Origin: Bacteroidales bacterium
GTDB lineage: Bacteria > Bacteroidota > Bacteroidia > Bacteroidales > G3-4614
DNA: 64,000 nucleotides
Assembly (NCBI GenBank): GCA_017559955.1
Contig: JAFYPQ010000048.1
Coordinates: 6,450-70,449 of the forward strand
Reading direction: 5' to 3'
Part shown: one piece after another, positions 19,131-32,362 of the stretch
How positions within the stretch are numbered: the stretch's first letter is position 1
Layout: every line of letters starts with the position of its first letter
The notes under the pieces: generated by a model
What the model saw: only the letters and a program-made list of their open reading frames with translations
Databases searched by the model: none
What the model was told of the DNA's origin: nothing
Program-made: the position numbers and the translations under genes

Positions 19131-21353
19131 TCAATATTGATCCCAATAATTTTTCTCAAGATATGACTCTGCATGATAATCTATCAATTTATCGCACTCT
19201 CCTCTTACAAGCCTGCCTTTTTCTGTTTCAGGATACTTTTCCGCAACTGTTTTAAAATTGCACAACTGATAATTTAACTCCGAAGCAACATCGTAATCCG
19301 TAACCATTGCCATTGCCTCGGCAACAATCTCCTTTGCTTTTTCTTTAGCAAATGGAGCATACTTCTCTTTAGGCAAATAAGACCTCCACCCTTTGTAATA
19401 TTGAGTAAGTCCCCAACAAAACCCAAACGAGTTGCGTATTCCTATTGCATACTTCACCATAAGTTTAGCCTTTTTGTTTGGGTTCTGCTCATATTTTATA
19501 GATTTTTCTAATCTACACATCTCTTTGGCAAACGAGAGTTTGAAATAGTTGTCTTTGCCATACTTTACCCTCTTTTCTGAGAATGGATCATAATCAATCC
19601 ACACATTAAGATGGTCTTTATACGACTCATCTACATTCTTAAAATAGCTCAATGCCTTCGCATATTTCATCTCACGCAAATACTGGGTTCCAATTATATC
19701 GTTTAAATAATCACTATTAATATAGCCTCTCTTATTCAAAAATCTATCAAACTCAGTTTTTGGGTTTTGAGTTCTTATCAAATAATTATTTGCCACCTTA
19801 ACCCCCAATGTGTCAATCATTTTAAAGAAGTCATTAGAATAGTCGCTTCTATTATAATAATCTGAATATCTGTATTCCTCCATTGTATAGCTTCTAACTA
19901 CTTGTCGCTCATAATCTCCACTATAAGATTCAACCCACTTATAAGTATCCCGTTTGTTAACCAATAATAGCAATCTATTATCTGCCATATTTGCCAATTG
20001 CAAAGCTCTAATAGATTTTCCTGCCGCAATCATGCGGGGCGCAACTTCAGAAAGCAAAATACGTCTTAGCATATCGTTCCAATAATAGAAGCTAAGTCCA
20101 TACTCCATTTCAGAGGCACCTTCTGCCACTTTTTGTTCTACCTCTTTATTGATATTTGTTGCTATTTTATTATCGAGCCACTTTAGTTGTTCAAACAATT
20201 TAGCTTCGTATGAGGCATCATACTTATATATTTTTGCATCGAGATAAATTCTCAATACCTTTATAGAATCCCTAAGATAGTCATCTTTTACACATCTCTC
20301 TGCCATAGCCAAATACGATGAAGCATTTAAATAATCACCTTTTAAATCGGTCAAAAAAGCCAATGTATAATACCACAAAGCCTTATTCTTTATCTTTTTA
20401 TCCTTTAGCATTTCGAGCGATAGAGTACGCAATTTATCTATATCTCTATTCACTCTTTCTACTAATTTTGGATCGTAAGGTGAATCATAGGTAGTTTTAG
20501 CCCAACACAGATCTAACTCTACATCTCTCACATGTGCTTGTAACATAGAAGTTATTTTAGCATCATTGGAATGGTAACTACAAACTTCTGCGAAAGCCTC
20601 AATGTAAGACAACTCCTTCCCTCTTATTTTTGAACAATACATGATAGAAGATACATCTCCTAATTGAGCAAAATATTCAATCCATTTCTCCGATTTGCCT
20701 ATTCTAAATTCTGCACCTGCAATATAGGGTAGCGCAAGGCGACGCATAATATTGCCTTCGGGAAGTTTTGAGATATCTTTCTCCCATAACTCTACACACT
20801 CTTCATATCTGCCCAACGTTGTTAATGCTCTGACAGCTTGGAGCAGATATCGATCTCTAAGACGTTTGTCCTTTGATGCCAACGACATCTCCAGCACCTC
20901 CTCTATTGATATTTTTGTTCCAAAAGTCATTGTTGGATAGTACCATGCCGAGTTTATTCTAGAGCGAATATACTCGTTTGTTTTTGCCAACATAAGAAAT
21001 TCCAATATAGTTGTATCTTTGTTTGTAATCCACTTTGAAAACTTATTGGTATAGTTAAAAGGTCCGTCGTTATAAATCTTCTCAAACTCATCTAAAGGCA
21101 TTTTATATACAACCTCATAAATATCCTTCAATGGTATCTCTTTAGATGTAAGTTCTTGCCATGCAATACAATTGGCTTTATACTCCGACTCATCAATATC
21201 TGCGCCTAAATCTTTATCATGACGAGGCGAATTCACTCTATACATAAAGAGCTCGCTAACAGGATATGCAGAGCCACTACACGCAAGAGTTTCATTAACA
21301 CAAAAAGCTAATAGTAAACTAATAAGCGAGAATTTTATCAATTTCTTCATCAC
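19131..21353 (-). CDS. Hypothetical lipoprotein, probably all-alpha/TPR-like
   Basis: 740 aa. Lipobox NETLAC|SGS. Rich in Y/W/K with helical-repeat character and no recognisable catalytic motif. Its start overlaps the upstream gene by 35 nt. Confidence 0.55.
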   Translation of the reverse strand: MMKKLIKFSLISLLLAFCVNETLACSGSAYPVSELFMYRVNSPRHDKDLGADIDESEYKANCIAWQELTSKEIPLKDIYEVVYKMPLDEFEKIYNDGPFNYTNKFSKWITNKDTTILEFLMLAKTNEYIRSRINSAWYYPTMTFGTKISIEEVLEMSLASKDKRLRDRYLLQAVRALTTLGRYEECVELWEKDISKLPEGNIMRRLALPYIAGAEFRIGKSEKWIEYFAQLGDVSSIMYCSKIRGKELSYIEAFAEVCSYHSNDAKITSMLQAHVRDVELDLCWAKTTYDSPYDPKLVERVNRDIDKLRTLSLEMLKDKKIKNKALWYYTLAFLTDLKGDYLNASSYLAMAERCVKDDYLRDSIKVLRIYLDAKIYKYDASYEAKLFEQLKWLDNKIATNINKEVEQKVAEGASEMEYGLSFYYWNDMLRRILLSEVAPRMIAAGKSIRALQLANMADNRLLLLVNKRDTYKWVESYSGDYERQVVRSYTMEEYRYSDYYNRSDYSNDFFKMIDTLGVKVANNYLIRTQNPKTEFDRFLNKRGYINSDYLNDIIGTQYLREMKYAKALSYFKNVDESYKDHLNVWIDYDPFSEKRVKYGKDNYFKLSFAKEMCRLEKSIKYEQNPNKKAKLMVKYAIGIRNSFGFCWGLTQYYKGWRSYLPKEKYAPFAKEKAKEIVAEAMAMVTDYDVASELNYQLCNFKTVAEKYPETEKGRLVRGECDKLIDYHAESYLEKNYWDQY

Positions 21354-22281
21354 TATAATTCTTTAATTGTTCATCATCTAGATGGTATAATATATTACCG
21401 CATGTGGGTTGTCCTAAGCGAGACTCAACAAATGCTTTTACTTTGTAAATCTCTCGGCATGTAGGTCGCTCTCGTCTTATATATTCATTCTCAACTGATA
21501 CGCTATCGTTTTCTGAAACAATTGAAACGAACTTATCATCTTTAAATTTAACACCCCAACCAAAAAGAGGATATGCATAAGAAAGTGGCAAGCTGTATGA
21601 CTTTTTCTTTTTTATATATGGTTTTACATTTGTTATATCAAGAATAGAATTTCTTGTTTCAGGATCTTTCAAGGATCCTGTATTGTATAACATTAAGACT
21701 CCTTTATCAACAGGGGGTGGCATTTCTCGTAGCTGATGCAACCTAATGGTTGCACTCAACTTTATTCCTCTATCTGCCAATATAGCTTTTGCTTTTCTAC
21801 ATAAATCATCATAGATGTATTTTGTGGTTTTTGTCCAATCACAATCAAACTGAATCTCCTTAATTTCGCCACACTTATTGTAATTACACATAGCCAACAG
21901 GCGTTCTACTATAAGCGAAGCATAATCGACATCACAATTCTGCATGTTTTTGAGAGCACCAAGCGTTATATATGTAACAGGAACAATCTCGATATTTTCG
22001 GGCACTTCAGAGATGAATTTAGTAGTGGCTATTGGCTCTACACCCTCCTCTCCTGAAAGAAAATCCCGTAGCAATGCCACATCAAACATTCTCATATAAA
22101 TTCGTTCAATGTTATGCTTCTCCATAAACGATACCTCAGATGAGTCAAGTTCAAATGTTGTCTTCCAATAATATATCGAATTATGACCCTTAACCTCACT
22201 TTTTTTCTCCCGAGAACAACCCAAAGTAATTACAACTATAAAAGTGAACAAACAGATATATTTCATTAATCTCATAACCAC
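21319..22281 (-). CDS. Hypothetical lipoprotein (possible TIM-barrel-like fold)
   Basis: 320 aa. Lipobox ITLGC|SREKK. An alternating beta/alpha-like pattern (IERIYMRMFDV, IEIVPVTYI, IKEIQFDCDW, IKLSATIRLHQL) suggests a barrel, but this is inference only. Confidence 0.5.
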   Translation of the reverse strand: MVMRLMKYICLFTFIVVITLGCSREKKSEVKGHNSIYYWKTTFELDSSEVSFMEKHNIERIYMRMFDVALLRDFLSGEEGVEPIATTKFISEVPENIEIVPVTYITLGALKNMQNCDVDYASLIVERLLAMCNYNKCGEIKEIQFDCDWTKTTKYIYDDLCRKAKAILADRGIKLSATIRLHQLREMPPPVDKGVLMLYNTGSLKDPETRNSILDITNVKPYIKKKKSYSLPLSYAYPLFGWGVKFKDDKFVSIVSENDSVSVENEYIRRERPTCREIYKVKAFVESRLGQPTCGNILYHLDDEQLKNYSDEEIDKILAY

Positions 22282-22460
22282 TCCTCCTCTTCAAAAGTTA
22301 CGTTACTATATTCAACTATTTGCAAAGAGGCATACTCTGCTACCTCATAATTCTTTTCATGAAAATTGAGTTGGAGTTTCTGTTCTCTCAAAAAATATGC
22401 ACTTATGGCAATATAAGTGCCACAAATCATTGCCCCTGTAATTAACATTTTACGTTTCAT
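22272..22460 (-). CDS. Small single-TM protein, first gene of the lipoprotein operon
   Basis: 62 aa. One hydrophobic helix (LITGAMICGTYIAISAYF). It overlaps the next gene by 10 nt and is preceded by a -7 box. Confidence 0.4.
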   Translation of the reverse strand: MKRKMLITGAMICGTYIAISAYFLREQKLQLNFHEKNYEVAEYASLQIVEYSNVTFEEEEWL

Positions 22461-22497
22461 ATATTTTGTTTTTTCTTATTAATGATGTTTTACAGTT

Positions 22498-22505
22498 CAA
22501 ACTTA
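22498..22505 (-). promoter_or_regulatory. Putative -7 promoter box (TAnnTTTG on the minus strand)
   Basis: Plus-strand caaactta is taagtttg on the minus strand. It lies 38 nt upstream of the 62-aa ORF ATG and immediately after the upstream terminator. Confidence 0.35.
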
Positions 22506-22508
22506 AGC

Positions 22509-22555
22509 AAAAAAAACTTCGTACTGCCGAGTTTAAGACTCAACTGTACGAAGTT
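22509..22555 (-). terminator. Rho-independent terminator ending the LytTR two-gene unit
   Basis: On the minus strand, aacttcgtac ... gtacgaagtt forms a 10-bp outer stem with an inner gagt/actc stem, followed by T8 (A8 at 22509-22516 on the plus strand). It lies 74 nt after the 300-aa gene stop. Confidence 0.7.
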
Positions 22556-22628
22556 ATTACGGGAGTGTATGAAGTATTACTTTATATGCAATTTCATAGA
22601 GAATCACTCTTCATATTATTCAAATTTT

Positions 22629-23531
22629 CTAGTTTTTACGCCATATCAAATATGATATATTTCGAGGTATCTTCTTTTTATATTTATAATATAAATCTTC
22701 GCCAAACTCATGCATTTGACCATTTTCATCAACAGCCCAACCATACGATGATGATCCAATTAGATATATCGCCTGATCGACACCAAGGTCCACCAATACC
22801 TGAGAGAAGTCATGGAATGACTCTTTTGTAAGACTTTCAACCATAAATATCTCCCCGTTTCGGTCGCATATCGACCTTCTTACCGACTTTGTCTTAATCT
22901 CATTCTCTACAACAGCCCCATTTTTCACAAGAGGATATTGTCTAAAGAAATACCCCCCTGTCTCTGTTGCCTCCTCGAACAAAGGAGAATTGTCCTCCAC
23001 TCCAATTGTTATATTACCATCTATCGAAGCACAAAATCCCCTCTTTGACAATCCCCACGCTTTAGGCTCCCCCTTTAAAACGAAAGCTCCTACAATTCCT
23101 CCATTATCGGCACGTACATCTGCTGCTTGCGCTGCGTATATAATCGTAGTGTCAGTTCTGTTCAATTTCCCTATATGCAATGACATAGTTGCATTATGAG
23201 GTATATATATTCTTATAGGCACATCATTTATTAATGTGTCTTTTATCTCAACAAAGCCTGTTTCTGACAGTCCAACCTCTCTACCTAACCTTTCAAGCTC
23301 CACAGTTTTCTCCTCGGGAAGAGCAACAACCTCAGGCTCAAAAAGCGAGGGTTCAACCATTTGTTGTTCGCTAATTTTCTTATTGTTTAATGTAAGTAGC
23401 ATTACTACTCCAATAACAACTATTGCTATTAGCGAAACAATAATATACATATTGCGTGAGGATTTATTATCCTTACTCTCCTCACCTACCACTCGTATTT
23501 GGTCGTCTCTAATATCTTTTAAATCCTTCAT
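22629..23531 (-). CDS. Single-pass membrane protein with an extracytoplasmic phosphodiester-glycosidase (NAGPA/DUF2233)-like domain
   Basis: 300 aa. A 27-aa charged N-tail, one TM helix (MYIIVSLIAIVVIGVVMLLTL), then a ~250-aa domain with NGGIVGAFVLKG...RRSICDRNGEIFMVES...VLVDLGVDQAIYLIGSSSYGW. This resembles the NAGPA family pattern, but the usual LDGGGS motif is replaced by LIGSSS. Confidence 0.45.
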   Translation of the reverse strand: MKDLKDIRDDQIRVVGEESKDNKSSRNMYIIVSLIAIVVIGVVMLLTLNNKKISEQQMVEPSLFEPEVVALPEEKTVELERLGREVGLSETGFVEIKDTLINDVPIRIYIPHNATMSLHIGKLNRTDTTIIYAAQAADVRADNGGIVGAFVLKGEPKAWGLSKRGFCASIDGNITIGVEDNSPLFEEATETGGYFFRQYPLVKNGAVVENEIKTKSVRRSICDRNGEIFMVESLTKESFHDFSQVLVDLGVDQAIYLIGSSSYGWAVDENGQMHEFGEDLYYKYKKKIPRNISYLIWRKN

Positions 23532-23533
23532 AG

Positions 23534-23896
23534 CTATTTCACTTCGCTTTCAAACATCTCTTTTAATTGTTTTAATGCCTCTTTTGATGCCGTTACCGTA
23601 TGACTAAACGACGAGACATTAGAAAGCACCAATTTTTGTTTGGCTATATTTATATAGTATATATATGAACTATTAACAATTAAACTCTTTCCTATTCGGA
23701 TAAAGTTTTTACCATCATTACCAAGTTGCGAAGAGATCATCTTCTCAATCTGACCTAGCTGATATGAAACCATACGGGTTTCATTATCTGCCTGTACCAA
23801 CGTTGAATAGTTGCCATCAGATGATATATATACGATTTGATTTGGGTCGATACGCACCAGATCAACCGATGTTGATATAATAAGTCGTCTCTTCAT
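23534..23896 (-). CDS. Stand-alone LytTR DNA-binding domain protein (no receiver domain)
   Basis: 120 aa. VRIDPNQIVYISSDGNYSTLV...FIRIGKSLIVN is the LytTR signature. There is no other domain. It ends 2 nt before the membrane-protein gene. Confidence 0.75.
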   Translation of the reverse strand: MKRRLIISTSVDLVRIDPNQIVYISSDGNYSTLVQADNETRMVSYQLGQIEKMISSQLGNDGKNFIRIGKSLIVNSSYIYYINIAKQKLVLSNVSSFSHTVTASKEALKQLKEMFESEVK

Positions 23897-23913
23897 ATAT
23901 TTAATTTGCTATA

Positions 23914-26291: not shown

Positions 26292-26299
26292 CAAAGATA
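26292..26299 (-). promoter_or_regulatory. Putative -7 promoter box for pnp
   Basis: Plus-strand caaagata is tatctttg on the minus strand, 30 nt upstream of the pnp ATG. A second match (caaattta) is at 26302-26309. Confidence 0.3.
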
Positions 26300-26449
26300 A
26301 CCAAATTTATTTGTTAAAAGAACTTTAAAGGGATTTTTTTAAGACAATAGATGTTTTTTTGATTACAAACAACTTATAAAAGAGCTATTGTATTAACAGA
26401 CTATTATATTTTCGGTTTTATATTTTTTACAAGCGTATAAATATCCAAT

Positions 26450-26472
26450 AAAAAAAGGGTCCTCCCGGACCC
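26450..26472 (-). terminator. Rho-independent terminator ending the six-gene exported-protein operon
   Basis: GC stem gggtcc / ggaccc with loop tccc. On the minus strand it is followed by a 7-nt U-run (aaaaaaa at 26450-26456 on the plus strand). It lies 25 nt after the 399-aa gene stop. Confidence 0.8.
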
Positions 26473-26496
26473 TTTCCCATATTACTATATGAGTTA

Positions 26497-27696
26497 TTAT
26501 TTTATCTCACGAATTAACATTCCGGGCAAGAACTCTGCACGTCCCGACACTTTTTTAAATGATGTTGCCGAAAGATCAGAACCCATAGCATTCTCTTCGG
26601 TTGCCATATATCTGTTATCCCAAATTTTTCCGGGGATGGGTTTTATCACTCCTACTCGTTTGTATGCAGTCAATCCGTCTTCGGTCATATACTTCTCCAA
26701 TACTTCATATTTTGAGGCATCTGTTATTCCCTCTTTCATTCCTATTTTTGCAGTAATTTCGGGATCGACCGAATATATCGGGGTTTTCACCTTGAATTGT
26801 TCATAGGTTCGTTGCAATTCCAATACCGATTTATCGATTGAGCGTGTGCACACCTTACGTATCATATCTATTGGTTCAAATACTCCCGCATAAGATGTTT
26901 CTCCACTATCAACTTTTTTCGAGCCTACAAATTTCAATTTAAAGGTTTGTGTATCTTCGTTAAATGCTTTTACCTTATCAGGATTTACCTCGCCATTTGA
27001 CATATAGTAGTCGGTATAAAATTTATTTGCCACCTCATCGTTCCACTCCAATTGATATAAATATGAGGTTACTATTACACGAAATCCTCTGATATCCTCA
27101 ATAGCATCTCCGATAGCATCTGTTAAATCTGATATTCCCGAGCCAAAGAACATTCCTAAGACAGATCCAACCCCTTTTAGTATTCCGGCTCCTATTTTTG
27201 CCGATTTCTCTTTATCTACATATCTTATATCATTTACCAACACAAAGGTATTTTTTATCAACTCCTCTCCTGCATCCTTCAACATTGCCTCTCCTCTGAT
27301 TGTTTGCTTCGACATCTCAACATCGAAGTAATCGGCATCATACAATCCTCGCTCCGAAACTTTGTCTATGTTACACTCTCCTGTAAGGGGATCTCGATTA
27401 AACCATAAAGCCACCATTCTTCGTGCCACATTATTAGCTTCGAGGAATTTAGAGATATCCGCCTCCGACTCTTTTTTGTCCATAGACGATACCAACTTTA
27501 TATTCAGGTCGTGATTGTTATACTTATCGGGAGTGGGCATCGATACAAACACATCGCTTATCTCTGATGTATATTTTGCCTGATCGTGGCTTATACATAT
27601 TGAATATATCGAACTTCTGCGATACTCTCCCTCTTCTTGTGCCACGGCACATATAGGTATAAGAAGTGTTGCTATTATTATAAATATATTTCTCAT
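26497..27696 (-). CDS. Secreted hypothetical protein (gene 6 of the exported-protein operon)
   Basis: 399 aa. Type-I signal peptide (PICAVA|QEEG), a Gly-rich internal segment (KIGAGILKGVGSVLGMFFGSGISD) and no recognisable catalytic motif. Confidence 0.55.
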   Translation of the reverse strand: MRNIFIIIATLLIPICAVAQEEGEYRRSSIYSICISHDQAKYTSEISDVFVSMPTPDKYNNHDLNIKLVSSMDKKESEADISKFLEANNVARRMVALWFNRDPLTGECNIDKVSERGLYDADYFDVEMSKQTIRGEAMLKDAGEELIKNTFVLVNDIRYVDKEKSAKIGAGILKGVGSVLGMFFGSGISDLTDAIGDAIEDIRGFRVIVTSYLYQLEWNDEVANKFYTDYYMSNGEVNPDKVKAFNEDTQTFKLKFVGSKKVDSGETSYAGVFEPIDMIRKVCTRSIDKSVLELQRTYEQFKVKTPIYSVDPEITAKIGMKEGITDASKYEVLEKYMTEDGLTAYKRVGVIKPIPGKIWDNRYMATEENAMGSDLSATSFKKVSGRAEFLPGMLIREIK

Positions 27697-27723
27697 TTTC
27701 CGTTATCTTATTAGTTAATATTC

Positions 27724-29406
27724 TTAATAAGCCCACGATTCGTTAGGCAACACATCTCCAATAGAGCATTTGGTAACATTCTTGTACATATTCATCAATA
27801 GCACATATCTTGCACCCAATGGCTTTTTGGACTTCTTGTAAACGTTCTCCAAAAGATATTTTGCATCTGCCTCGGTTGATAATCCTAAAGGAACTACAAA
27901 TATCCCCGATTTGTCGATACATCCCCATACGTTGCTATCAGTTTTTACCATAGCATAGTCTCCCTCGAATGGAAATCCAAACATTGGTAATGCGGCATCA
28001 AAGCTTATTCGTGCAATTCCCGTTTTATCGATATAATATCCTTTCCCTTCTTTATAGGCATAGGCTAATCCCTCTTTAAAATCGCCTACTTTTGTATATC
28101 CGCTATCGAAACACTCCTTGCCCTCTGTATTAATCCAGCAATATGTCCCACTGTTTTTTTTCACTACTGCAAAATCATCGCTATATTGCGAAATATTTTC
28201 ATATGGAATAGCATTGATTTTCTTTCCGTCCGAATCGAGAACATAATTATAAACTATTGGCGTATTGGCTGATAATTCTTTAGTTGATACCAATGCTCTG
28301 CCATCGTCTGATATTTCAGATACGACGGTAAATTCAAAATTAGATAGAATATTTCCTTTATCATCTACATACGCCCACTTCTTGTTTTGTTGAACAAATG
28401 CTCGACCTTTATTGGGCTTTATAATAACACTTTCGAAGCGGGGAGAAAACACCTCGTTTCCTGCTTCGTTAATATATCCCCACAATACAGGAGCCTTTTT
28501 ACTCTCCTTCAAACCTACGGCTGCCATTCCGCCCGAAAATTGATATGCTCCATCATATTTAATTTCAGTTACAGCCTCGCCTTGTGCGTTTATATATCCG
28601 TATTTATCTCCTAACTTCACCCAAGACATGCCATTCTCAAATACTCCTGCAAAGTCGTCATAATACGTTTCGTTCAAAAATTCGCCATTATCGTTTATAT
28701 ATGCAAATTTTCGTTTTGAGTTTTGCACCCAAGATATTCCGCCTACAAAATCGGCTTTGACTGATAGATATTTTGGGGCTACCAACTCCTCTCCATTACT
28801 CTTTATATAACCCCATAGACCACCTACAATCTTCTTGTCTTGTTGCTCAACGCCTCCGACATTAACCCAACACACTCCGTTTGAATCGAATGCTCCATGA
28901 CCCGCATATTTAACTTCTGAGATTAAGACTCCTTGCGAATTTATTAATCCGTACTTTTTACCGGCTCTAACCCATGCGGTAGAGGTATTATCAAAGAAAC
29001 CTATTTCATCATACTTTGCAGGAAGAACTACTTCACCTTTGGTATTTATATATCCTAATTTACCTCCGCTTACGACACCCTCTTCTACTTTTCCTCCTGA
29101 ATTTATTTGAGCCAATCCATATTTGTTATAGGGACCAATATTTGCATAATTAATTGGGACCAACACATTTCCTAATGTGTCGATTATTCCAAACTTCTGT
29201 TTCTTTGATACTTTTGCTTTTCCGTCGATAAACTCCTCTACGGTTTCATAGGTAGGAGATATCACCACATTACTATCAGAATCGATATACCCCCACTTGC
29301 CTTTTTCATTCTGAAACGCTCTTAAATCGGCAGCATTCACAGAGAAGGAGATTGTGGTGGCAAAAAGCAATGCTGTACATATATTCCTTTTCATAATTTT
29401 ATTCAT
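27724..29406 (-). CDS. Secreted WG-repeat (KWG-type) protein (gene 5)
   Basis: 560 aa with a signal peptide (SVNA|ADL). About 13 copies of the unit K(W/Y)G(Y/L)I(N/D)..G..V(I/L).P.Y., for example KWGYIDSDSNVVISPTYE, KLGYINTKGEVVLPAKYD and LWGYINEAGNEVFSPRFE. Confidence 0.8.
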   Translation of the reverse strand: MNKIMKRNICTALLFATTISFSVNAADLRAFQNEKGKWGYIDSDSNVVISPTYETVEEFIDGKAKVSKKQKFGIIDTLGNVLVPINYANIGPYNKYGLAQINSGGKVEEGVVSGGKLGYINTKGEVVLPAKYDEIGFFDNTSTAWVRAGKKYGLINSQGVLISEVKYAGHGAFDSNGVCWVNVGGVEQQDKKIVGGLWGYIKSNGEELVAPKYLSVKADFVGGISWVQNSKRKFAYINDNGEFLNETYYDDFAGVFENGMSWVKLGDKYGYINAQGEAVTEIKYDGAYQFSGGMAAVGLKESKKAPVLWGYINEAGNEVFSPRFESVIIKPNKGRAFVQQNKKWAYVDDKGNILSNFEFTVVSEISDDGRALVSTKELSANTPIVYNYVLDSDGKKINAIPYENISQYSDDFAVVKKNSGTYCWINTEGKECFDSGYTKVGDFKEGLAYAYKEGKGYYIDKTGIARISFDAALPMFGFPFEGDYAMVKTDSNVWGCIDKSGIFVVPLGLSTEADAKYLLENVYKKSKKPLGARYVLLMNMYKNVTKCSIGDVLPNESWAY

Positions 29407-29429
29407 ATAGGGTTTCTATGAAACAAGCA

Positions 29430-30386
29430 TTAATATCCAAATATATTTGTAGTATTGGGTTGTTGTCCTGTTCCGTATGCAACACCGACATCACGAGCTG
29501 CCTGTATTTTTGCTTTCTCAATCTCTATGTCCGACAAGATTAAGTTTTGATCGAATACTTTATCCGATTTAATCTCTTTCTTTATCTCTTCGTATAGTGC
29601 TTGTGCTTCAGAATAACATCCATATTCAGGATAAATCAATGCCAAATATTGAGCTGCTTTTTTAGCTCCCGACTCATTTTGTTCGGCAACCCATGCAGAG
29701 CGTGCTGCTTGAAGATTTTCATTACAAATATCATTCATATATAGGTTGTAGATATTTATAGTCTCTTTATTTGCCTCTTCTGCATATTTCGAGCAATCGG
29801 GTATTGCAATGATAGTATATAGAGCCTCCTCGAATTGCTTCATTGCCGCCAACTTTTTAGCTTTTATTATAATATTGGCTCCATTGGCATCGTAATAAGC
29901 TATGGCTTTCTCTTTTCCTTTTTTAAACAGAGACAATAGTTGGGGAGAGTTGGGCTTCAATGATTTTATTGCTGATATTTGAGCCTTACTCTCCGAATTA
30001 TCAACTGCCTTTAACGGCATTGTTTCAGAATAATATATAACACCTGTGTTTACGTCTATAAGGTACAAAGTCAATTCAAAGTCTAACGAGTATTTTGCAG
30101 GAGGTCCGGGCAATACATCTTTTGTCAAGCATATCAACTTCGGCACTATTGCCAACGATGACCCTTCGCCTAAAACAAAACTCTCATTGTTTGAAATCTG
30201 TCCTATTCTCTTTACCAAAAAATCCTCTGCCGATTTTGTTAATCCGCTCTCTTCAGGAGCAACTACTCTTACTGATATATCACAATCTTGTGCAGAGACA
30301 TTTGCAAACATTACTGAAAACAGTAATGCACATATCGATAATTTTATTTTGCGTTTCATATTCTTAATGTTTTTATTTTTCTCCAA
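29430..30386 (-). CDS. Secreted hypothetical protein (gene 4); the start may be Met10 at 30359
   Basis: 318 aa with a signal peptide (ANVSA|QDCD). N-terminal mixed alpha/beta region and a helical C-terminal half. The first ATG overlaps the upstream gene by 14 nt, whereas Met10 would leave a 13-nt gap. Confidence 0.55.
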   Translation of the reverse strand: MEKNKNIKNMKRKIKLSICALLFSVMFANVSAQDCDISVRVVAPEESGLTKSAEDFLVKRIGQISNNESFVLGEGSSLAIVPKLICLTKDVLPGPPAKYSLDFELTLYLIDVNTGVIYYSETMPLKAVDNSESKAQISAIKSLKPNSPQLLSLFKKGKEKAIAYYDANGANIIIKAKKLAAMKQFEEALYTIIAIPDCSKYAEEANKETINIYNLYMNDICNENLQAARSAWVAEQNESGAKKAAQYLALIYPEYGCYSEAQALYEEIKKEIKSDKVFDQNLILSDIEIEKAKIQAARDVGVAYGTGQQPNTTNIFGY

Positions 30387-31320
30387 TTATTAATACAGCC
30401 TCACCCAAACCTCTTGTCAATACTTTCGATTGAAGGTTATATGGTGCCTGACGCAAATATTTTGATAGAGAGCGAACAAAATATTCTGTATCCATTGCTC
30501 TTCCGTTCTCACGATAAAGAGGAATTCGTACTTGTGAAAAATCGATATAGTTCTCTGTTCCGTCAAGTTTGCTATAACGATGTTCTACTGTGTTTTCATA
30601 CATCCAATCGTCGATTATCTCAGAAAGTTCACTTCCATCAAATTCACTTTCCAAATCGATACCAGAACCATTGTCAAATACCCTTATTCGAACAGAAACT
30701 TCACGACCATTTGTAAACAAATCGTCGAAGTAAACTTGAAGGCGTGAAGCAAATTCATCCATATTTGCGACAATCGCCTCTTCTAACAAAAGAACGGTTT
30801 CGGCTGTCATAGAAGGAGAACCTGTCCCTTGAACTGCCGCAATTTGCTTATTGGTATAAGCATCAAGTGCTTGCAGATTATATGTTATGCTTTTCTTGGG
30901 ACCCAATTGATTTACAGTCCAATCAACAGATAATATAATATCCGCTTTGGCTACTCGTCTTATCTTATCCAAAAGACTCTCGGCAATTGTCGAACCCGAT
31001 TTTGACATTACCAATCGTTCTTCTGCCTCACGTTGTTCTATTCCTGAAATAGTTGCAGAAAGGTCTTTCAAGGGGAAACCTCTATCTGCCATCAATGCTC
31101 CCAATTTTGAGATAACATTTGTAAGTTCCTTGTCTGTTTTTACCGCTTTCTTATAATCAGGGACTTGTTCTTTAACTCCTTGATTATCTGATGTTATCAT
31201 ATATCCTTTTTCGTTACACCATACATCGCTTGGCATAACCATTATTTCGGGTTTCTTTGCTTGTGAAAAGCACAATACAGAAACAAAAACTAATAGTGCT
31301 GATAAAAATAACTTTTTCAT
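30373..31320 (-). CDS. Secreted hypothetical protein (gene 3; possibly DUF6175-like)
   Basis: 315 aa. Signal peptide (LCFSQA|KKPE), then PEIMVMPSDVWCNEKGY. The family name is from memory only. Confidence 0.5.
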   Translation of the reverse strand: MKKLFLSALLVFVSVLCFSQAKKPEIMVMPSDVWCNEKGYMITSDNQGVKEQVPDYKKAVKTDKELTNVISKLGALMADRGFPLKDLSATISGIEQREAEERLVMSKSGSTIAESLLDKIRRVAKADIILSVDWTVNQLGPKKSITYNLQALDAYTNKQIAAVQGTGSPSMTAETVLLLEEAIVANMDEFASRLQVYFDDLFTNGREVSVRIRVFDNGSGIDLESEFDGSELSEIIDDWMYENTVEHRYSKLDGTENYIDFSQVRIPLYRENGRAMDTEYFVRSLSKYLRQAPYNLQSKVLTRGLGEAVLIIGEK

Positions 31321-31326
31321 ATTTGC

Positions 31327-31803
31327 CTATTTTATTATTCCATTTGATTTTAAATACTCTTTTAATTGCGGACGATATACCATCACAACAATACCGAATT
31401 TTTTCTCTCGTTTACTCAACTCTTTTGTTCTGTTTAAACGACGACCTCCTTCATCATCGGTTACGAATTTTTTGTAATCGCCATTCTCGCTAAAAAAGAA
31501 ATTGAAGAAATCTTCATATTTCTCGCGTGCATTTGCCTCAAATATCAATGGTTTTGTATTACATAGTTCGTTCCCCGATCTTATACCTTTAAATATAACA
31601 TCGTTCAAAGCATTCTTCATTGCTTGTTGTTTTGCATCGTCTCGAGTTCTTCCCGCACCCCAAGCAATTAATGTTTGCGAACCGTCTTGTGCCACTCCCA
31701 AACACTCTGTTTCATACTCATAGTATGTTGTTGATGTTTTTTTTGCATATCCTATTGTTGTTATTACAACTAATATTGCAATCAATAAAACTCTCTTATT
31801 CAT
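31327..31803 (-). CDS. Small secreted protein, paralog B (gene 2)
   Basis: 158 aa with a signal peptide (TIGYA|KK). It aligns by eye with the neighbouring 157-aa protein across YEYETEC.G, KPL, DFFNFFF and L..YL...GII. Confidence 0.55.
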   Translation of the reverse strand: MNKRVLLIAILVVITTIGYAKKTSTTYYEYETECLGVAQDGSQTLIAWGAGRTRDDAKQQAMKNALNDVIFKGIRSGNELCNTKPLIFEANAREKYEDFFNFFFSENGDYKKFVTDDEGGRRLNRTKELSKREKKFGIVVMVYRPQLKEYLKSNGIIK

Positions 31804-31815
31804 ATCTGTTTGCTT

Positions 31816-32289
31816 TTAAAATCCTGTTGACAATCCTCTTATAACTCCTGCCTTCTCCAAATCTTTTCTCAGTGCATCTTTCGAAATGATGGCGATAGTT
31901 CCGACTTTATATTTTTTACTTACTTTGATATATTCGTATGGTGTTGACGCCAATGTTACATAAGAAAGATATTGTTTATCTGCTCCAAAAAAGCTGTTGA
32001 AAAAATCTTTGTGTTGCGATTCTGCTATTGCCGAACCTGCCAATGGTTTAAAGCTACGACATTCTCCAGATGCTGAAACGCCTCTGAATAGAGCTCCGTG
32101 TACAGCTGCCTTTTTCAACTCATCCGGTGTTACCTTCTTGTTTGCCGAATAGACCCATACTTTTACCATATAATATCCCTCTTTAGAGATTGCTCCTCCA
32201 CATTCTACATCATATTCAAACATATCTGATGCAAAAGATGAAAATGGAGCCAAAAAGATTACAAGTAATCCTAAAACGAACTTTTTCAT
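31816..32289 (-). CDS. Small secreted protein, paralog A (gene 1)
   Basis: 157 aa with a signal peptide (SSFA|SDM). Shared motifs with the 158-aa neighbour: FEYDVEC.G, KPL, DFFNSFF and L.KDLEKAGVI. Confidence 0.55.
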   Translation of the reverse strand: MKKFVLGLLVIFLAPFSSFASDMFEYDVECGGAISKEGYYMVKVWVYSANKKVTPDELKKAAVHGALFRGVSASGECRSFKPLAGSAIAESQHKDFFNSFFGADKQYLSYVTLASTPYEYIKVSKKYKVGTIAIISKDALRKDLEKAGVIRGLSTGF

Positions 32290-32354
32290 ATTTATTAATT
32301 ATATTTATGCTTCCTACTCTTGGAGATTTTCGGAATCCTCTATGCTTAATAATG

Positions 32355-32362
32355 CAAATTTA
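32355..32362 (-). promoter_or_regulatory. Putative -7 promoter box for the six-gene operon
   Basis: Plus-strand caaattta is taaatttg on the minus strand, 66 nt upstream of the first ATG (32289). Confidence 0.35.

Follow-up and report, generated by a model that had tools for sequence, protein, structure and literature searches.

What might six exported proteins, encoded side by side and almost without annotation, be building in the envelope of a Bacteroidales bacterium? The question is raised by a stretch of 64,000 nucleotides (GenBank assembly GCA_017559955.1, contig JAFYPQ010000048.1, positions 6,450 to 70,449 of the forward strand), which is called the window here. A minus-strand block at 26497-32289 holds six tightly packed open reading frames (ORFs), A to F, which form a real operon and whose products all start with a signal peptide. 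The original prediction for this block, made from the DNA letters, had suggested a structural or scaffolding complex free of enzymes. The reading proposed here, to which we give even chances, is that the operon encodes an outer-membrane-tethered periplasmic scaffold that carries or docks variable head proteins and belongs to no known family. Its genetic unit is a core of four families plus a variable slot, and not a fixed set of six genes.

The six ORFs have the sizes that had been claimed for them (157, 158, 315, 318, 560 and 399 aa), and the gaps of 12, 6, -14 (or +13), 23 and 27 nt are reproduced from the ORF coordinates. Inspection of the N-termini agrees with the original prediction that all six are of the ordinary (type I) signal-peptide kind, and a lipobox is absent from every one of them in this organism. 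Family-library matches exist for two products only, both in Pfam: C is a DUF6175 protein and E a WG-repeat protein. The absence of a recognisable enzyme or of a C-terminal domain of the type IX secretion system (Por_Secre_tail type) was also borne out, as neither Pfam nor NCBIfam gives such a match for any of the six at curated cut-offs, and the NCBIfam matches all lie far below these. Compared with PDB chains, the sequences of A, C, D, E and F return nothing meaningful. The family profiles of A/B, C and F find nothing in the PDB either, and the D profile alone gives a weak match, to LptE. When 48-53 homologues per family were scanned with Pfam, no recurrent informative family appeared except a weak TraT signal for F and a weak TPR signal for D. 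That no described system has this gene set also holds so far as the searchable literature library goes: searches for DUF6175, PF19672, WG_beta_rep and GNA1162/DUF799/DUF4810 found no description of the module, no mention of DUF6175 and nothing linking FlgT-like proteins to Bacteroidota. Beyond these matches, sequence and profile methods link the proteins to no known family; at the level of the predicted fold, C and F have relatives in the group of CsgG, PelC, LpoB and FlgT.

A conserved core with a variable slot

Related loci were collected with a DUF6175 alignment from GTDB species, each represented by a single genome, which gave 79 loci. Module content was determined by tblastn and ORF clustering, and a locus was counted as complete when at least 5 kb were present on both sides of C. 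All of the 43 complete loci, which come from Bacteroidales and Flavobacteriales, contain A/B, C, D and F, and in 42 of the 43 this core spans 9 kb or less. The taxa of the 79 loci include Prevotella, Alloprevotella, Bacteroides, Tannerella, Dysgonomonas, Paludibacteraceae, Rikenellaceae, Muribaculaceae, Myroides and Flavobacterium, and the closest relatives are Candidatus Caccoplasma / Coprobacter-like Bacteroidales metagenome-assembled genomes (MAGs). The recurrent order is A/B (one or two copies) - [f7] - C - D - [variable slot] - F, where f7 is an additional family described further below, and some loci show the permuted order [variable] - F - A/B - [f7] - A/B - C - D. The genes flanking the module vary by lineage, and the module is therefore self-contained. 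Synteny, which the original prediction had proposed as a check, is seen for A/B, C, D and F but not for the WG-repeat family E, which is present in only 19 of the 43 complete loci.

An alternative would be that there is no system at all and that unrelated exported proteins merely happen to be adjacent. The families indeed have no detectable sequence relationship and no functional annotation, but this reading is contradicted by the synteny, the core being kept together in 43/43 complete loci despite unrelated flanks and permuted order. A tail motif confined to the gene upstream of F and fusions that join variable domains and probable barrels to F, both described below, also argue against it, and it can be regarded as extremely improbable.

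Complete modules were also seen on two contigs binned outside Bacteroidota, in a MAG labelled Ruminococcus flavefaciens (L046) and in one labelled Flexilinea sp. (L078). The proteins encoded there share 54-58% identity with the window's C, as is typical of Bacteroidales versions, which makes mis-binning likelier than transfer between phyla.

In the window, the variable slot 5' of F is filled by E (27724-29406, minus strand), a protein of 560 aa, or of 556 aa according to gene callers on identical metagenome contigs. Its identity as a WG-repeat protein is confirmed by the Pfam model WG_beta_rep (PF14903; 220 bits, cut-off 25.6), but Pfam finds 10 repeat matches rather than the ~13 repeats counted earlier. 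Several proteins can take this place interchangeably, E among them. What these occupants share is the C-terminus, which in E reads ...VLPNESWAY, with LPNESWAY as its last 8 aa (27727-27750). In a scan of 1,996 ORFs (80 aa or longer) from the window and the 79 loci, a W-x-[YF] terminus was found in 42, where the chance expectation is estimated at <1, and every one of these is the gene next to F on its upstream side. The consensus of the tail is D-V-I-P-E-E-L-W-[DG]-[YF]-COOH. The genes that carry it encode WG-repeat E, members of f13 or f26, which are unrelated families, or a 277-aa protein without a classification, and the E-F pair is kept together in permuted clusters. In loci without a tail-bearing gene, D usually directly precedes F and ends ...W-L-R. 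The W-[DG]-[YF] tail may dock the head protein onto the core.

A short tail that is common to unrelated proteins also has the look of a sorting signal. This is the starting point for another explanation, in which a CsgG-, PelC- or TraT-like conduit, made of C, of F or of both, lies in or beneath the outer membrane, the proteins ending ...W-[DG]-[YF]-COOH pass through it as cargo, and the tail serves as a C-terminal export signal. Such a secretion or sorting device seems rather unlikely on the evidence from F, C and the gene content that follows.

In some genomes there is more than one set. L049, L065 and L075, and one MAG that holds both L056 and L072, have either an additional F gene accompanied by a tail-bearing partner or an additional complete module with a different head protein. 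These second pairs suggest that the head-base pair diversifies within a genome.

Gene F and its predicted FlgT-like architecture

F (26497-27696, minus strand, 399 aa) was modelled with AlphaFold2 (AF2) and compared with the PDB by Foldseek. The model (predicted local distance difference test, pLDDT, 76.8; predicted TM-score, pTM, 0.72) shows a pair of alpha/beta domains followed by a beta domain at the C-terminus. The sole matches below 1e-3 are both Vibrio FlgT, namely 3w1e (2.7e-7) and the LPHT-ring chain 8z5n_0 (1.4e-6). These alignments have probability 1.0 and run over the full length, about 415 columns, but their TM-scores are 0.21-0.24. For the C-terminal domain there is a further match, to the beta-barrel with which F1-ATPase subunits begin, and CsgG and TraT stand far down the list. 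On the predicted structure, F resembles FlgT in its three-domain architecture. By sequence, none of 48 F homologues matches the FlgT Pfam models at E <= 0.1, and no PDB sequence is found by the F profile at E <= 10.

Between two strands of F there is an inserted helix-loop-helix that is rich in Ala and Gly (residues ~162-202, 27091-27213), which accounts for the Gly-rich segment noted originally in the 399-aa protein. The maximum 19-residue Kyte-Doolittle mean of this insert reaches up to about 2.0 in homologues. Lying in an alpha/beta domain, it recalls the membrane hairpin of TraT, a surface-exclusion lipoprotein that forms a decamer with an alpha-helical membrane barrel and has chromosomal homologues of unknown function (PMC11733297). 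Weak Pfam TraT matches were found in 5 of the 48 F homologues (best E = 0.0056). Homology to TraT was considered for F and rejected, as neither hmmsearch nor hhalign against a verified TraT sequence (checked against annotated plasmids) was significant, leaving a resemblance only. F is moreover much larger than TraT, has a different domain composition and is without a lipobox.

Two explanations draw on this resemblance. For a secretion device, the hairpin would be like that of TraT in position and composition and the weak family matches would fit, but the F profile compared with a verified TraT sequence gives nothing significant. The other explanation is a TraT-like protective or exclusion coat, an oligomer set into the outer membrane that would shield the cell surface from conjugation, complement or phage. 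Besides the hairpin and the weak matches, it can draw on the low place of TraT in the Foldseek list (9fs5, E = 0.34) and on the two diverged module copies in some genomes (L056 with L072; L049; L065). Against this stand the non-significant profile comparison, the fact that F is not a lipoprotein, the PADLOC (anti-phage defence) and PHROGs (phage) models, which match none of the six proteins, and LysM, Sel1 and PEGA heads, which point to the periplasm. A coat of this kind is very improbable.

The heads just mentioned come from an exhaustive hidden Markov model search for the F family, which returned 1,377 representatives at 50% identity. Architectures were counted on the best 150 of these: 73 are plain, 58 extended at the N-terminus, 14 extended at the C-terminus, and 5 are fragments. 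The N-terminal extensions are 111-1,032 aa long, have a signal-like N-terminus in 51 of the 58, and contain UVR motifs (12), PEGA (8), DUF2846 (5) and LysM (2) as well as Sel1, MORN, META and DUF4377 domains. At the junctions of these proteins there is no relic of the W-[DG]-[YF] tail, so that the fusions are not simple E-F read-throughs. As variable domains are either fused to F or, we infer, attached by the tail, F is best seen as the conserved base that carries them. That 58 of the 150 representatives have variable domains fused fits display or anchoring, and does not fit the free cargo of a secretion device.

Genes C and D

C (30373-31320, minus strand, 315 aa) is matched over its whole family profile by Pfam DUF6175 (PF19672; 384 bits against a cut-off of 23, E = 5e-115, profile positions 1-293/293). 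Its AF2 model (pLDDT 85.3) consists of two tandem alpha/beta domains. The Foldseek matches are GNA1162/DUF799 (4hrv, 1.3e-5), pre-pore CsgG (4uv2, 1.2e-4) and FlgT (8z5n_0, 3.7e-4), and further XCC0632, PelC and the C-terminal domain of LpoB (4q6z, 5.6e-3). In the model, the domains of C resemble those of the CsgG / PelC / LpoB / GNA1162 / FlgT-N,M type.

Several such proteins assemble into rings that lie beneath or within the outer membrane; CsgG is nonameric and PelC dodecameric. The two alpha/beta domains of C both match the group of CsgG, PelC, GNA1162 (DUF799) and LpoB with E-values of 1e-5 to 6e-3, but unlike these TolB-N-like lipoproteins C has two tandem domains, is not a lipoprotein (there is no true lipobox), and in the AF2 model shows no predicted transmembrane hairpins of the CsgG type. 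There is also no Pfam CsgG match, the likeness being one of fold to the pre-pore form 4uv2 only, and no curli (csgE/F/A/B) or Pel partner genes were found at the window operon or related loci. The CsgG and PelC folds of C are what a secretion device would have in its favour here. The missing hairpins count against a conduit, as does the lack of an energy source, of polymer-synthesis genes and of amyloid-type cargo in the cluster.

D (29430-30359, minus strand) is 309 aa long from the ATG at 30359, the start chosen by gene callers on identical metagenome contigs, or 318 aa from the TTG at 30386. In the D profile, the N-terminal alpha/beta half is weakly LptE-like (5tse, E = 0.02), and the C-terminal half is helical and TPR-like (designed CTPR, E = 0.1; TPR-type matches in 6 of 49 homologues). 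D ends in a conserved aromatic tail, ...GQQPxTTNxxW-L-R, which reads ...NIFGY in the window. A weak match of D to the NCBIfam family LIC_11959_fam (0.054) was also seen.

With an LpoB-like C and a TPR protein in D, one may think of regulators or adaptors of peptidoglycan synthesis or remodelling that resemble the outer-membrane lipoproteins LpoA and LpoB, in which D would supply TPR repeats like LpoA and the heads would bind the wall. The LpoB domain is among the fold matches of C, D has its TPR-like half, and LysM is fused to some F proteins. In addition, the module of a common gut Prevotella (L086 and L087, 2383-14954), with the order E-F-A-f7-B-C-D, lies directly upstream of purH-mreB-mreC-mreD-pbp2-rodA. 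But the LpoB match is weaker than those to GNA1162, CsgG and FlgT, LysM is found in only 2 of the 58 fusions, the module contains no PBP or hydrolase, and its flanks are not conserved. The adjacency to mreB is limited to one lineage, and as it is absent from the other lineages looked at, it may be coincidental. This explanation is accordingly quite improbable.

Genes A and B and links to the outer membrane

A (31816-32289, minus strand, 157 aa) and B (31327-31803, minus strand, 158 aa) make up a small family of exported proteins. They are the tandem paralogues that the original prediction took them for, with 25% identity (E = 6e-12). A has two conserved Cys, C30 and C77, and no match above the curated cut-off in Pfam or NCBIfam nor any among PDB sequences. 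A-type proteins have a conserved C-terminal tail, GLSxGF-COOH, which is GLSTGF here (31819-31836), and B-type proteins are without the GF tail. None of 53 A/B homologues matches LPP20 (FlgP-type) in Pfam, and a PDB search with the A/B profile brings up nothing relevant.

B-type proteins provide a link to the outer membrane. The statement that lipoboxes are absent is true of all six proteins here, B having a type I signal peptide in this copy, but B-type orthologues elsewhere mostly carry one: it is found in 39 of 70, with clean examples such as LTGC, LLGC and LASC. The other families of the module have ordinary (type I) signal peptides. In Bacteroidota, the signal for export of lipoproteins to the surface is acidic. 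Of 27 distinct post-Cys peptides of B-type lipoproteins none is acidic, and they therefore point to the periplasmic face.

Barrel proteins provide a second link. Family f7 is encoded inside the cluster in 27 loci and comprises proteins of ~240 aa that end ...GYEF and have an alternating sequence pattern with many Gly and aromatic residues. In another subgroup of clusters f27 is encoded, which matches Pfam OMP_b-brl at 1e-8. From their sequences, both are probable small outer-membrane barrels. The C-terminal extensions of F (14 of the 150 representatives) are 160-290 aa long, and most have an outer-membrane-protein-like end, ...G-x-x-F, with nothing significant when compared with Pfam and with the f7 and f27 profiles. 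Because the terminal ...G-x-x-F and the composition are the only basis, that these extensions are barrels is something we infer. Barrel partners in some clusters would suit a secretion device as well.

In some f7 proteins there is an optional N-terminal domain of ~60 aa (L021:9200-9922, L065:8515-9432) that matches NCBIfam Lepto_7_Nterm at 9e-9, below the cut-off. Taken with the weak match of D to LIC_11959_fam and with WG repeats, which are also common in Leptospira, this suggests that accessory parts of the module may have Leptospira relatives.

Proposed assembly and the flagellar H-ring

The closest comparison is with the H-ring of the Vibrio flagellum. This has 26 FlgT subunits per ring, with the lipoproteins FlgP and FlgO as concentric rings anchored in the outer membrane, and the C-terminal tail of FlgP (residues ~132-145) enters clefts of the FlgT ring (PMC13626733; bioRxiv 10.64898/2025.12.02.691832). 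The module is similar in several ways. F has the predicted three-domain FlgT-like fold with FlgT as its only strong PDB match, and C matches FlgT too. There are small partner proteins (~140-160 aa) that are probably outer-membrane lipoproteins in most species, though without a lipobox in the window, the conserved C-terminal tails with aromatic ends are comparable to the FlgP tail, and the genes are clustered. It differs in that none of its proteins matches Pfam FlgT_N/M/C, FlgO or LPP20, in the low TM-scores, and in having the conserved C and D, the variable head slot and the Ala/Gly insert of F in addition. Gene maps and Pfam tables, for the window as well as for related loci, contain no flagellar context (flgOP, L/P-ring or motor genes), and to our knowledge Bacteroidota are not flagellated. 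A stronger claim would make the module a cousin of the flagellar H-ring that stands on its own, outside any flagellum. In bacteria without flagella, a FlgT-like base, small lipoproteins and tails docked into grooves would then form a periplasmic ring tethered to the outer membrane, as a platform for interchangeable ligand-binding heads that are either fused to the base or recruited by a previously undescribed short tail, ...E-E-x-W-[DG]-[YF]-COOH. This we put forward as a tentative possibility only.

The scaffold proposed here is, on the predicted folds, broadly of a known type, that of periplasmic assemblies near the outer membrane built from TolB-N/CsgG-like domains. New are the fixed four-family core, the variable head slot and the short C-terminal tail motif. 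By analogy with the proteins that its parts resemble, the scaffold, which is specific to Bacteroidota, is probably oligomeric, likely ring-like, and placed on the periplasmic face of the outer membrane, and it would work in the manner of an H-ring or PelC-type assembly. F would be the FlgT-like base, oligomerising under the outer membrane, and the assembly would be anchored by B through its lipid and, where present, by f7/f27 or fused barrels. The A/B proteins, of which A has the conserved Phe-terminated tail, would tether or decorate the F base, while A, C and D may add further conserved accessory layers in which conserved C-terminal tails act as latches between subunits. The head would be either the product of a separate upstream gene, docked on F by ...P-E-E-x-W-[DG]-[YF]-COOH, or a domain fused to the N-terminus of F. 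Here it would be the WG-repeat protein E, held by its tail and supplying binding specificity. As for the cellular role, the module may serve envelope architecture or the coupling of outer membrane and peptidoglycan, together with the display of ligand-binding domains. The LysM heads of some lineages hint at contact with peptidoglycan, which makes coupling of outer membrane and wall, or envelope architecture, the likeliest role.

The structural reading of the original prediction is partly supported in this form by the absence of enzyme families at curated cut-offs, the predicted ring-protein folds of C and F, the B-type lipoproteins and the probable barrels, but the fixed six-gene unit that went with it has to be given up. 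Several observations weigh against the scaffold. The likeness to FlgT, CsgG and PelC is at the fold level only, with low TM-scores (0.21-0.28), and no sequence or profile method ties any of the proteins to these families. Comparison of the A/B, C and D profiles by hhalign shows no relationship among them. The insert of F is only moderately hydrophobic here, with a maximum Kyte-Doolittle mean of 1.39. For outer-membrane anchoring in this organism, it counts that the window's A and B are without a lipobox and that its cluster has no barrel gene. Lastly, the 1,377 representatives of F have a distribution that looks patchy, which argues for an accessory rather than a core role in the envelope. It was also considered whether all parts are diverged paralogues of one another, and this was rejected for want of sequence support, the hhalign comparison showing no kinship.

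Promoter, terminator and neighbouring genes

The borders of the operon had been predicted as well. At its 3' end, an intrinsic terminator (26450-26475, minus strand) was assessed by folding and shuffling. The hairpin GGGUCC-GGGA-GGACCC, followed by a U-run, has a folding energy of -17.4 kcal/mol (z = -3.9), and 0 of 200 shuffles fold equally well, in agreement with the GC-stem terminator that was described. At the 5' end, a candidate Bacteroidota -7 box, TAAATTTG (32362-32355, minus strand), is present where it was expected upstream of A, and it is the sole minus-strand match to TAnnTTTG within the intergenic region 5' of A. The motif is of low information, with 118 copies in the window against an expectation of 75 +/- 8.6, and because it is so common the box is a plausible but not a proven promoter.

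Two adjoining TAnnTTTG boxes, TAAATTTG and TATCTTTG, are found at 26292-26309 (minus strand), just 5' of pnp, and pnp therefore appears to have a promoter of its own downstream of the operon terminator. Further downstream of pnp, at 19131-23900 (minus strand), there is a LytTR-domain gene of ~120 aa followed by ORFs of 300, 62, ~320 and ~740 aa. These four ORFs have no Pfam family on record, and the whole block is conserved in contigs of the same species.

Implications

Bacteroidota dominate the human and animal gut, and their envelope is unlike the Proteobacteria model, with many of its parts uncharted. The module described here is widespread, occurring in thousands of protein clusters and in very common gut Prevotella, and its annotation consists of a single DUF name. 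If the operon does encode a scaffold as proposed, this would be a new envelope structure that could be sought by cryo-electron tomography, and the W-[DG]-[YF] tail would be a new, directly testable short C-terminal docking or sorting motif. The module would also give the FlgT-type ring proteins a concrete relative outside flagella and would bear on the origin of the accessory rings of flagellar motors. Should the kinship with the H-ring turn out to be true, it would represent a new class of Bacteroidota envelope organelle. Flagellar motors might then have recruited their outer rings from a non-flagellar ancestor or sibling for which the module would be a candidate.

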